In this document: piece by piece, positions 37,101 to 40,100 of the stretch
Layout: the number at the start of each line of letters is the position of its first letter
How positions within the stretch are numbered: the stretch's first letter is position 1
Source of the DNA: Escherichia coli
GTDB lineage: Bacteria > Pseudomonadota > Gammaproteobacteria > Enterobacterales > Enterobacteriaceae
Assembly: GCF_003991155.1 (NCBI RefSeq)
Contig: NZ_CP031293.1
Strand: one strand, 5' to 3'
DNA: 64,000 bases
Position numbers: made by a program

Positions 37101-40100
37101 CCTGATATAATTACCTTTAACTTCCCTTTCATTTCCACCCGATAATATTTGTGTATAAAAAAGGGCAGTGATAGTATCGTAAAGGAAAACGTTAACAACT
37201 ATCAAAAAGCGCTCATTTTAAAAAGTTATGATGTTCTCCGATAGTGTGTGAAGTGATATTTTCGTGATGTTTTAGATGTGTAATAATGAACCAGGTTAAA
37301 GTGTATTTAAAAATGTGTTGTATTGGCGACTGAAATCTGCCCTTTAAAAGGGGGGATAGCACTGAGACAAAGAGGCATTGCTTCTCCGATACAATGTCAG
37401 AGAAGCATGATTGCGTGGTGATTGTCGATTGATGACTTACTGACGGATCCGTCATCATTCTCAAAGCATTAGTTAAGTTATTTGTGATTTTTAAGGATTA
37501 TCCTATCTATGATTTTCTACTCAGAAGGATAAGGCACTCACAATGCTCCTTATAGTTTACTGCTGGCATCTATTTAAAATAGCATTTGAGTCAAGTAGCC
37601 CATCAAGATAGCCATACCTAAGATAACCGTCAGGAATGCAACTATCATCGGTATTCTGAACATTGATTTAAGTAATATCACTTCCGTCAGGCTTGCGCCG
37701 GCACTGCCGATGATTAATGCCATTAATGCTCCCAGACCCATTCCTTTTGTCATCAGAACAGATGCCAGAGGGATAACCGCCTCTGCCCGGATATATAGCG
37801 GAATACCGACAACGGCGCTCAATGGGATGGCGAAGGGATTATCTGCCCCTGCATGAGCGGCAATCCACTCTGAGGGAATAAAGCCATAAATAAAAGAGCC
37901 TATTAATACCCCTAACAAAAGATATGGCAGTACATCTTTAAACTGTTGCAACGCATCTTTGGTGGCTAGTTTTATGGGATTAATACTTACCACAGCTTTG
38001 GTACTGCAACAGTTTACTACAGGTTTCTCAATGGCTTTAGCCGCTGGACTACAGCAACTCACTTTTATTGGCGTATATGTCGTCCCCGGCGAAGTTTTGG
38101 CTTGAGCACAACAATTTGCTGATGAGCTTTTACTGGCAATGATATGACGTTCAAATCCCAGGGAATCCAGGATAATACTGGCAAGTACGGAGACGCCGGC
38201 GGCGATAATCGCGTACAACAAGGTAACTTTCCAGCCAAAGGTCACCCACATTAACCCGACGATAATGGGATTAAGTAATGGGGAAACAAATAAAAAAGTG
38301 AGGGTCGGACCAAACCCGGCTTTCGCTGATAACAATCCACGTAACATGGGGATTGTCGAGCAACTACAGAACGGGGTAACGGCTCCCAACAGAGCAGCCA
38401 GGAGATAACCTCTCCCTTTTCTGGCCCCCATTATCTGCTGGATTTTATGGTCTGGCACCTTTTGTCTTATCAGGCTCACACCGGCACTAATCACTATAAA
38501 CAGCAAAGAAAGCTCGACGGCGAGAAACACAAACATTTCTGCGGCATCTTGCAGCATCGCAAGCCAACTACTCATACGTAACCTCATTGAATAAATCTAT
38601 ATTTCCAGAATAATCGAAATAAAATTCAGATCAAGATATTTCTGGTATTATCGAAATATCAACCAGACAAAGGGGGTGTCATATGCAGTTGGAAGAAGTT
38701 GCTAAAGCGCTGAAAGAGCTAGGTCACCCGACCCGTTTGTTCATATTCAAACACCTGGTCAAAGCGGGGGAACTAGGTTTGCCGGTCGGTGAGTTGCAAA
38801 AGCAGCTTGGGATACCTGGCTCCACACTCAGCCACCATATCTCAGCACTGGTATCGGTAGGACTGGTCAAACAAAACCGTGAGAGTCGGACGCTGATGTG
38901 TGTTTCGCAATATGCAATGCTGGAAGCGATAATTGAATTCTTACGCGAGGAGTGCTGCGTAAATAGCAAAACACATGGCGAAGGGGCCACGAAGAACAAA
39001 TAAGGGGGCATATCCCCCTTTAGCTATTTCAGGCGCTTACCCGCCTCATCAACCACTTTCTCGCCATCTTCCTTGGTGAACGCGCGTTGTTGCGCATCTG
39101 GCAGAATTTCCAGCACCACTTCTGAAGGGCGGCACAGGCGAGTTCCCAGCGGCGTCACCACAATCGGGCGATTAATCAGAATCGGGTGCTGAAGCATAAA
39201 GTCGATTAACCGATCGTCAGTAAATTTATCTTCTGCAAGGCCTAGTTCCTCATACGGCTCGACGTTTTTACGCAGCAGCGCGCGTACGGAAATCCCCATA
39301 TCGGCAATGAGTTTGACCAGCTCATCGCGCGTTGGCGGTGTTTCCAGATAATAGATAATGGTCGGTTCTGTACCGCTGTTGCGGATCATCTCCAGCGTAT
39401 TACGCGACGTACCGCAGGCCGGGTTGTGATAAATGGTAATGTTGCTCATATCAATATCTCATTACAAAGTGAAAGAGAGACGTAGCGCCAGCACAGCCAG
39501 CGTCACAAAAAGCACCGGCAGGGTCATGATAATCCCTGTACGGAAGTAATATCCCCAGCTGATAGTCATATTCTTCTGCGAAAGTACGTGCAGCCAGAGC
39601 AGCGTTGCCAGGCTACCAATCGGTGTAATTTTCGGCCCCAAATCGCAGCCAATCACGTTGGCATAAACCATCGCCTCTTTGATGACACCAGACGCCGTGC
39701 TGCCATCAATGGACAACGCGCCAACCAGTACCGTCGGCATATTGTTCATAATAGAAGAGAGGAAGGCGGTGAGGAATCCGGTGCCGAGCGTCGCCGCCCA
39801 CAGGCCGTTATCCGCCAGCACGTTGAGTACGCCAGAAAGATATTCCGTTAATCCGGCATTGCGCAGGCCATAAACCACCAGATACATGCCGAGCGAGAAG
39901 ATGACAATCTGCCAGGGCGCACCGCGCAGCACCTTACCCGTATTAATCGCATGACCGCGTTTAGCGACGACAAATAATATCAGCGCGCCCACTGCCGCAA
40001 TGGCGCTTACCGGAATGCCGAGCGGTTCCAGGACGAAAAATCCCACCAGCAGAAGCAGTAAAACAACCCCGCCAGTTTTGAAGGTGGCAGGATCTTTAAC

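Follow-up and report, generated by a model that had tools for sequence, protein, structure and literature searches.

The window, a stretch of 64,000 nucleotides of the Escherichia coli genome GCF_003991155.1 (contig NZ_CP031293.1), contains two divergently oriented genes, for an ArsP-like permease and an ArsR/SmtB repressor, which probably form a self-contained arsR-arsP unit for trivalent organoarsenicals such as methylarsenite; reduced roxarsone or phenylarsenicals are probably also among its substrates. The efflux of trivalent organoarsenicals, induced by the same compounds, is the most likely function of the unit. A second arsenical-sensing module beside the operon arsRBC had been proposed in the first-pass annotation, and both this proposal and the family assignments of the two proteins hold; inducer and substrate, which were then considered unassignable, we now infer for the E. 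coli pair, from close homology and conserved context, to be trivalent organoarsenicals. Wild E. coli and plasmids commonly carry the module, which is absent from K-12 and has only generic annotations.

The regulator gene (38683..39003, plus strand) encodes a protein of 106 aa, in which the Pfam domains HTH_20 (E=2e-13) and HTH_5 (E=2.7e-6) were detected, and which scored 60.8 bits against the NCBIfam model HTH_metalloreg (cutoff 55). Together with the similarity to AfArsR (6J05) and SpArsR, these matches identify the product, by sequence, as an ArsR/SmtB repressor of the SpArsR type. Its cysteines are C73, in the motif MCVS (38899..38901, plus strand), and the pair C91-C92, in the motif EECC (38953..38958, plus strand). 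No cysteine precedes residue 73, the region of the DNA-binding helix included, and the type 1 site of R773 and K-12, Cys32-x-Cys34-x-x-Cys37, is absent from the 106-aa protein. The initial description of a divergent regulator of this length with C-terminal cysteines and no CVC site was confirmed, as was the canonical site ELCVCDLC of the neighbouring arsR product, which matched the NCBIfam model PRK10141 with 232 bits. Among 64 partner regulators, C91 and C92 are invariant (64/64), and C73 is present in 62/64; an additional cysteine located five residues past the pair (CCxxxxC) was found in 20 of the 64, so the effector range may differ within the family.

The best match to the regulator in the PDB was AfArsR of Acidithiobacillus ferrooxidans, a type 2 regulator (6J05, E=3e-10, alignment free of gaps), followed by BigR and YgaV. 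The pair C91-C92 falls exactly on Cys95-Cys96 of AfArsR, where the dimerisation helix ends, in agreement with the assignment to regulators with C-terminal thiols made at the outset. The third ligand of AfArsR, Cys102, is needed for three-coordinate sensing of inorganic As(III) (PMC11868830, PMC13236881). Two of the three ligands are present in the E. coli regulator, but the position of Cys102 is occupied by His98, in a tail devoid of cysteine (VNSKTHGEGATKNK); AfArsR, in turn, has no cysteine at the position of C73. His98 was considered as a metal ligand and rejected, since this residue is not conserved among homologues. C73 could supply a third ligand.

The closest characterised regulator, by sequence, is SpArsR of Shewanella putrefaciens 200, which is methylarsenite-selective rather than an As(III) sensor: it responds to MAs(III), is unresponsive or weakly responsive to As(III), and lacks the Cys102 of AfArsR (PMC11868830, PMC13236881). 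The sequence of SpArsR was rebuilt from the published biosensor construct, with the residues T, LFR (codons ~27-33) filled from the S. hafniensis orthologue; in the rebuilt protein, residues 83, 101 and 102 are cysteines, of which the pair 101/102 matches the published numbering. The E. coli regulator is 58% identical to SpArsR over 92 residues (BLASTP, E=5e-41, no gaps). Both proteins have the same set of cysteines, residues 83/101/102 of SpArsR corresponding to residues 73/91/92 of the E. coli protein, with none after the pair; the E. coli protein differs in the absence of the 10-residue N-terminal extension and in its longer C-terminal tail.

A module for inorganic arsenite or antimonite, in which C73, C91 and C92 would form a three-thiol As(III) site, possibly across the dimer, and the permease would back up ArsB, appears rather unlikely. 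Conservation of the three cysteines (62/64 for C73 and 64/64 for the pair) is compatible with it, but SpArsR contains the same three residues and reportedly shows no response, or only a weak one, to As(III). In the alignment, the pair coincides with Cys95/96, which bind As(III) in AfArsR, and the motif CCxxxxC of 20/64 relatives recalls the third ligand of that protein, but in the E. coli regulator no cysteine follows the pair and the position of Cys102 is the non-conserved His98. The location next to arsRBC is also in line with inorganic arsenic; a second As(III) pump next to ArsB would, however, be redundant. Of the likeness to As(III) sensors noted in the first-pass annotation, the C-terminal thiols stand, while sensing of As(III) itself is disfavoured by the absence of the third cysteine and by the methylarsenite selectivity of the closest characterised regulator.

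The intergenic region between the two genes contains two dyads, TTTCGATAATACCAGAAA and TTTCGATTATTCTGGAAA. The candidate operator O2 (ATATTTCTGGTATTATCGAAATAT, 38636..38659) is a perfect 8-10-8 inverted repeat and overlaps the candidate permease promoter, with promoter-like hexamers on the minus strand (-35 at 38662..38657, -10 at 38638..38633). The candidate operator O1 (ATATTTCCAGAATAATCGAAATA, 38599..38621), a direct repeat of O2 with 37-nt spacing, overlaps a promoter-like site on the plus strand, the candidate promoter of the regulator gene (-35 at 38587..38592, -10 at 38609..38614). The core of O2, TTTCGATAATACCAGAAA, matches the site ATTCGATAATACCAGAAA of the arsP promoter of S. putrefaciens 200 in 17/18 bases; in this single-base difference over 18 positions, and in the adjacency of the permease gene (Sput200_1227/1226), the E. 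coli pair resembles the SpArsR-ArsP system. The copies on plasmids and those of Aeromonas and Citrobacter retain O2, and a TTTC-N10-GAAA dyad was detected in 54/57 homologous intergenic regions vs 13% of shuffled controls. The E. coli intergenic region is much shorter, ~107 nt with the two dyads 37 nt apart, in contrast to >220 nt in Shewanella.

The match of operator and cysteines to SpArsR also speaks against a thiol- or redox-stress module, in which a BigR-, SqrR- or YgaV-like regulator would sense persulfide, sulfite or an electrophile and a sulfur compound would be the cargo of the permease. Among solved structures, BigR and YgaV rank second and third in similarity to the regulator, and vicinal cysteines are able to form disulfides or polysulfide bridges, but the NCBIfam BigR model was matched below threshold, with 38 bits vs a cutoff of 155. 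Sensors of the BigR/SqrR type have a cysteine at the N-terminal sensing position, and with no cysteine before C73 the E. coli regulator has nothing at such a position. No rhodanese, beta-lactamase-like hydrolase, TauE or YeeE-type partner recurs at the 80 loci compared. This function is highly improbable, and a persulfide sensor of the BigR/YgaV type was rejected on the grounds of the sub-threshold score and the lack of an N-terminal cysteine.

The permease gene (37574..38575, minus strand) encodes a protein of 333 aa. At its full extent the open reading frame covers 37574..38587 (337 aa), with an upstream in-frame ATG at 38587; the ATG at 38575 is the likely start, because the sequence GAGG is located 6 nt upstream, homologues begin with MSSW or MNSW, and this codon was chosen by PGAP, which in an identical genome annotates the start at 38575 under the product name 'permease'. 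The Pfam model ArsP_1 (PF03773) matches the protein over its full length (E=1.4e-52, query 13-334 vs model 3-293 of 294), and the permease is a member of this family; for both proteins, profile search recovered, with scores well outside chance expectation, the families proposed initially, HTH_5 in the case of the regulator. The minus-strand permease, its motif TPFCSCSTIP and its three Cys-Cys pairs were all located where the first reading had placed them.

The motif TPFCSCSTIP comprises residues 67-76 in the 333-aa numbering (38348..38377, minus strand) and includes Cys70 and Cys72, which are invariant in 81/81 homologues and, to judge from this conservation, are likely the substrate-binding thiols. 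In Campylobacter jejuni ArsP, transport reportedly depends on two conserved cysteines of the PFCSC region, according to a 2015 paper; a literature search on Cys65/Cys67 of ArsP returned only unrelated papers. The CSC motif is conserved throughout the PF03773 superfamily, including SO_0444 Cu/Zn exporters and SaoE (preprint 10.1101/2022.07.06.499078). As the motif is superfamily-wide, it gives no pointer to the substrate and is not specific for organoarsenical exporters; the motif and family assignment made from it earlier were retained, whereas the specificity for organoarsenicals was not.

We know of no solved structure in the family PF03773. A sequence search of the PDB with the permease gave nothing meaningful (best E=0.71), and neither did Foldseek comparison of its model with the PDB, the best match having E=0.2, with transporters of the YdaH, TRAP and INDY type at a TM of ~0.35. 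In the AlphaFold model (pLDDT 87.7, pTM 0.84), helical bundles are formed by residues 2-138 and 200-332. The predicted fold, with 4+4 helices and a central loop, agrees with that described for TC 2.A.119, where the central loop is variable (PMC7176098).

At the sequence level, the permease was compared with the ArsP of the neighbouring species S. hafniensis, used as a stand-in for Sput200_1226. The E. coli permease is 52% identical to the ArsP paired with the SpArsR orthologue in the arr/ars island of S. hafniensis, but just 29% identical to the second PF03773 paralogue of the same island. The ArsP of C. jejuni (TC 2.A.119), the only ArsP known to have been assayed biochemically, exports MAs(III) and Rox(III), not As(III), and its gene, too, is found together with ars genes and one for an ArsR regulator (both reviewed in PMC6205960); it belongs, however, to a co-directional ars operon that includes acr3, while the E. 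coli genes form a divergent two-gene unit.

No NCBIfam ArsP model matched the permease, and the top NCBIfam matches were SO_0444, the Cu/Zn efflux family (NF033936; 109.1 bits vs cutoff 300), and SaoE (NF040736; 85 vs 325), both below threshold. They share the PF03773 superfamily and the CSC motif with the permease, and in Shewanella loihica a DUF318 gene beside zntR is of importance during zinc stress (10.1101/072470). A soft-metal exporter of the SO_0444 kind for Cu(I), Zn, Cd or Hg, in which the Cys-rich loop and the CSC motif would bind the metal and the thiols of the repressor would sense it, is nonetheless distinctly unlikely. The scores are ~1/3 of the curated cutoffs, and the Shewanella ArsP orthologue is equally sub-threshold against the SO_0444 model (117 bits vs cutoff 300); the matches therefore reflect superfamily resemblance only. 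SO_0444 and SaoE also differ in regulator type and neighbourhood: their associations are with metal-ion stress or a selenoprotein locus and not with ars operons. The partner of the E. coli permease is an ArsR-type repressor near SpArsR rather than a ZntR or CueR of the MerR type, the permease loop shows almost none of the enrichment in His, Asp or Glu that usually marks Zn/Cu(II) sites (His 0.5%), and the genes are co-located with ars genes, with no cop, czc, znt or mer genes seen beside the module in the neighbourhoods inspected. A Cu/Zn exporter was accordingly rejected as the lead reading, since the Shewanella ArsP scores alike and both regulator and context point to arsenic.

The two helical bundles of the permease are separated by a central hydrophilic Cys-rich loop, which is located at residues ~145-199 (37979..38143, minus strand) and contains the Cys-Cys pairs C155-156 (38108..38113), C174-175 (38051..38056) and C189-190 (38006..38011). 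The loop is modelled as disordered, with pLDDT 47-57 and no secondary structure. Across 81 homologues its length varies from 31 to 111 residues and differs even between close alleles; cysteine is present in every loop (median 6) and accounts for 8% of the composition, as against 0.5% for histidine, i.e., the loop is thiol-rich and His-poor. CC pairs were found in the loops of 52/81 homologues, and the S. hafniensis ArsP orthologue also carries them.

ArsD binds trivalent arsenic and antimony via vicinal Cys-Cys pairs and hands them on to the pump. The likeness of the permease to ArsD is confined to the three vicinal pairs of the loop; the ArsD sequences at the loci compared have a CC pair near the start and CC-rich tails at the end. 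No sequence homology to ArsD was found, and the permease loop differs in being disordered, variable in length and built into the transporter. An ArsD-like, chaperone role for the loop is speculation by analogy.

For the arsR-arsP unit, the following mechanism is proposed. In the absence of inducer, the dimeric 106-aa repressor would occupy O1 and O2, and, as these overlap back-to-back promoters, the regulator and permease genes would both be off. A trivalent organoarsenical, for which two thiol ligands suffice, would bind Cys91-Cys92, where the C-terminal dimerisation helix ends, whereupon the repressor would be released from DNA. The permease, with its 4+4 predicted transmembrane helices, would export the compound via the membrane-embedded Cys70-x-Cys72, and substrate capture or transfer may be a task of the disordered polycysteine loop. 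Inducer, substrate, repression and any role of the loop are here inferred from the comparisons given above.

The canonical arsRBC operon (39024..41159, minus strand) is adjacent to the module but outside it, and was delimited by open reading frames and PGAP names as arsC (39024..39449), arsB (39462..40751) and arsR (40806..41159). A GC-rich, terminator-like hairpin, AAGGGGGATATGCCCCCTT (39002..39020), is located between the convergent regulator gene and arsC and is likely a bidirectional terminator. An Rfam scan of 36900..42100 matched two AgrB-type RNAs near dinQ alone, with no RNA family in the module.

The arsR-arsP pair directly follows arsC in Escherichia (arsRBC), Citrobacter (arsRDABC) and Aeromonas (arsRDA-acr3-arsC), and was also found in or near the ars clusters of Buttiauxella, Endozoicomonas, S. 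hafniensis, a Citrobacter plasmid and a Staphylococcus plasmid, the last with arsD only. The Shewanella pair is part of a large arr/ars respiratory island, unlike the E. coli pair with its minimal arsRBC. Among 80 species-level loci, mainly of marine Vibrio and Shewanella, the regulator adjoins the permease in 63; the pair stands alone in most, with ars genes within 10 kb (<=10 kb) in ~6-8, an arrangement that speaks against a role in arsenical efflux. The regulator is the only generally recurring neighbour; apart from a SigZ sigma factor, which recurs at 12 Vibrio-type loci, all other neighbours are lineage-specific.

The pair is complete in 2225 of the 5426 finished E. coli genomes (~41%). 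In K-12 the pair is absent and decayed remnants of both genes remain, with yhiS split by IS5, which confirms the initial remark that the pair lies outside the K-12 gene order. Work on arsenic resistance relies on K-12 and its ars-deleted derivatives as standard hosts, and their lack of the unit may account for the absence of studies on it in E. coli. In public databases, the exact proteins are named only 'permease', 'ydaA' or 'ArsR/SmtB family'.

Should the unit make its hosts inducibly resistant to methylarsenite or to reduced compounds of the roxarsone type, many commensal and pathogenic E. coli, as well as Salmonella, would be defended against organoarsenicals, the sources countered being products of other microbes or animal-feed compounds. 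A determinant would then be missing from the catalogues of resistance genes and from the annotation now in use ('permease', 'ArsR/SmtB family transcription factor'), and the repressor with its operator would be an E. coli-native part for methylarsenite biosensors. The known working of such systems is unchanged by the module, which would be a further example of the arsR-arsP type.

A version 75-80% identical to the chromosomal module is present on ~615 plasmids, mostly conjugative, with E. coli and Salmonella as hosts; no other ars genes accompany the plasmid copies examined, which likewise counts against a role in arsenical efflux. It is conceivable, although doubtful, that at least one of two further readings is correct, namely that the loop is a built-in ArsD-like domain for capture and hand-over, or that the plasmid copy is an unrecognised determinant of organoarsenical resistance. 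As such a domain, the loop would set affinity or substrate range, and selection would explain how rapidly plasmid alleles acquire and lose CC units. As a resistance determinant, the plasmid copy would owe its selection to arsenicals added to feed or to gut microbes that produce methylarsenite, and linked genes for antibiotic resistance, e.g., tet(A), would be co-selected with it.

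Two divergent open reading frames with exactly the features described in the first-pass annotation were confirmed in the sequence. The regulator gene (38683..39003, plus strand) encodes a protein of 106 aa, and the permease frame occupies 37574..38587 on the minus strand; its start at 38575, giving 333 aa, is preferred because of a GAGG 6 nt upstream, the 333-aa product annotated by PGAP (the NCBI annotation pipeline) in identical genomes, and homologues that start with MSSW or MNSW. Profile searches bore out the assignment to an ArsP-like permease and an ArsR/SmtB regulator: Pfam ArsP_1 (PF03773) covers the full-length permease (E=1.4e-52), and the regulator matches HTH_20 and HTH_5 and scores above the NCBIfam metalloregulator cutoff. 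The best-supported reading of this pair, a homologue of the Shewanella SpArsR-ArsP system, is that it probably serves the efflux of trivalent organoarsenicals under the control of its repressor.

The regulator contains cysteines at positions 73, 91 and 92 only and, as had been noted, lacks the classical ELCVCDLC site of the neighbouring arsR (40806..41159). For comparison, SpArsR, the methylarsenite-selective repressor of Shewanella putrefaciens 200, and its arsP promoter were taken from a biosensor construct (supplement of PMC12124457); translated SpArsR contains Cys83, Cys101 and Cys102, the 101/102 pair agreeing with the published numbering. The two proteins share 58% identity (E=5e-41) with cysteines at all three aligned positions, and by sequence the regulator is classed as an SpArsR-type protein, for which a trivalent organoarsenical would be the inducer. 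Among 64 regulators adjoining homologous permeases, C91 and C92 are invariant (64/64), and C73 is present in 62. The best solved relative, the As(III) repressor AfArsR of Acidithiobacillus ferrooxidans (PDB 6J05), aligns without gaps, C91-C92 falling on Cys95-Cys96, as could be expected if inorganic As(III) were the signal; AfArsR, however, requires a third ligand, Cys102. An extra cysteine five residues past the CC pair occurs in 20 of the 64 partner regulators, mostly from Vibrio, and is absent from the enterobacterial ones. Inorganic As(III) is the weaker candidate, and a trivalent organoarsenical is preferred.

The 107-nt intergenic region contains two dyads of 23–24 nt, at 38599..38621 and 38636..38659, spaced by 37 nt, each overlapping promoter-like hexamers of one of the two genes, where the regulator would repress the pair. 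The core of the first, TTTCGATAATACCAGAAA, differs by one base from a site in the Shewanella arsP promoter, ATTCGATAATACCAGAAA; the other dyad has the core TTTCGATTATTCTGGAAA, and a second Shewanella site is TTTCCATAATTCCAGAAA. A TTTC-N10-GAAA dyad was found in 54 of 57 homologous intergenic regions vs 13% of shuffled controls.

In Shewanella hafniensis, a regulator nearly identical to SpArsR and a divergent permease with 52% identity to the window permease, also carrying CC pairs in its loop, both sit within an arrAB/arsDABC island (locus L046, 6894..20306). This large arsenic island further contains a type 1 arsR, two arsC genes of the low-molecular-weight-phosphatase type, a glutathione-synthase-like gene, and a second PF03773 paralogue with merely 29% identity to the window permease. 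The loop of the ArsP orthologue includes a tandem SCCDTKPAPV repeat.

The motif TPFCSCSTIP, considered typical of ArsP, is present at permease residues 67–76, but CSC is the most conserved motif across related families (preprint 10.1101/2022.07.06.499078) and therefore marks the superfamily, not the substrate. Export of soft-metal ions would agree with the NCBIfam match to the SO_0444 Cu/Zn exporter, which reaches 109 bits vs a cutoff of 300; the Shewanella ArsP orthologue has the same sub-threshold score, so this hit represents superfamily background. The match to SaoE is also sub-threshold. Soft-metal ions, as well as sulfur or redox stress, are weaker alternatives to organoarsenical efflux.

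The AlphaFold model of the permease is confident (pLDDT 87.7, pTM 0.84; 72 sequences), with predicted helical bundles 2–138 and 200–332 linked by a disordered loop, 145–199, containing all three Cys-Cys pairs (155–156, 174–175 and 189–190). This prediction agrees with the description of TC 2.A.119 (PMC7176098), a 4+4 topology whose hydrophilic loop is variable; no solved structures resembling the permease were found by PDB sequence search or structural search of the model. The polycysteine loop is a trait of the permease family: among 81 homologues, its length is 31–111 residues, cysteines are present in all (median 6), CC pairs in 52, and His is almost absent. By analogy with ArsD, the loop may reasonably be hypothesised to act in capture.

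The gene order in the window and identical genomes is chuS, dctR, slp, an intact yhiS-like gene, permease, regulator, arsC, arsB, arsR, dinQ, gor. The yhiS-like gene (35772..36995, minus strand; 407 aa) matches no NCBIfam family and is named 'hypothetical protein' by PGAP. Between arsR and gor, two strong Rfam AgrB matches at 41308..41391 and 41539..41623 (minus strand; 101 and 103 bits) represent AgrA and AgrB, the antisense RNAs that belong, as in K-12, to the dinQ type I toxin locus.

The order arsC, regulator (opposite strand), permease recurs in Citrobacter beside arsRDABC and in Aeromonas beside arsRDA-acr3-arsC. In Citrobacter, a lambdoid prophage carries the whole block as cargo; in three loci (L011, L012 and L013, 3230..9092), complete arsRDABC and the pair lie between DnaT/lambda-P replication genes and a DinI/RusA region. 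Homologues also accompany ars genes in Buttiauxella, C. gillenii, Endozoicomonas and S. hafniensis and on a plasmid of Citrobacter; on a Staphylococcus plasmid, the ars gene present is arsD. The permease has the regulator as its sole recurrent neighbour across 80 species-representative genomes (63/80); about 6–8 of the 80 loci have ars genes within 10 kb, a minority but far above the expectation for a random gene. A SigZ ECF sigma factor (NCBIfam 246 bits), whose cysteine-rich tail starts EECC, is encoded directly beside the regulator in 12 of the 80 loci, namely L042 (8894..9484, minus strand) and 11 other Vibrio-type loci.

The complete pair was found in 2225 of 5426 finished E. coli genomes. 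It is absent from K-12, as the first-pass annotation had noted; there, yhiS is a pseudogene split by IS5 and a 301-bp segment (L005 4681..4981; K-12 3650681..3650981) replaces the pair. This segment contains REP-like GC-rich palindromes adjoining arsC and decayed pieces of the permease gene (61 nt at 67% identity) and of the regulator 3' end (62 nt at 82%); therefore, the pair was lost in the K-12 lineage rather than gained here, and the loss took more than one event. A second chromosomal allele, in strain E69 (L014, 9605..10996; 74% identical), is located elsewhere, and no ars genes lie within 10 kb of it; hence, in E. coli the module exists in two or more chromosomal lineages and a plasmid one.

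In public databases, the two proteins are named no more specifically than 'permease' and 'ArsR/SmtB family transcription factor', and functional work on the chromosomal pair of E. coli was not found in the literature. The finding is real and its original interpretation essentially right; the module is a so far uncharacterised example of a known system type, and it matters as a gap in annotation, with a plausible bearing on ecology or epidemiology, rather than as a new mechanism. The plasmid allele (75–80% permease protein identity, longer loop), flanked by IS and Tn3 elements, occurs on 615 of 72,556 plasmids, including 400 from Escherichia and 185 from Salmonella; 455 are conjugative, and humans, pigs, poultry and wastewater are among the sources listed. 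On an IncFIA/IncX1 plasmid (L003), an annotated dinQ-type toxin gene (3559..3642, minus strand) lies ~2 kb from the pair, echoing the chromosomal dinQ-arsRBC-pair arrangement, and may hint at the site where the plasmid copy was captured. More distant pairs were found next to lnu(G) on an IncY P1-like phage-plasmid (L004, 5563..7023; permease identity 49%) and as cargo between Tn3-family transposase genes on an Acidovorax plasmid (L006, 4269..5674; 64%), where the two genes are co-directional and overlapping.
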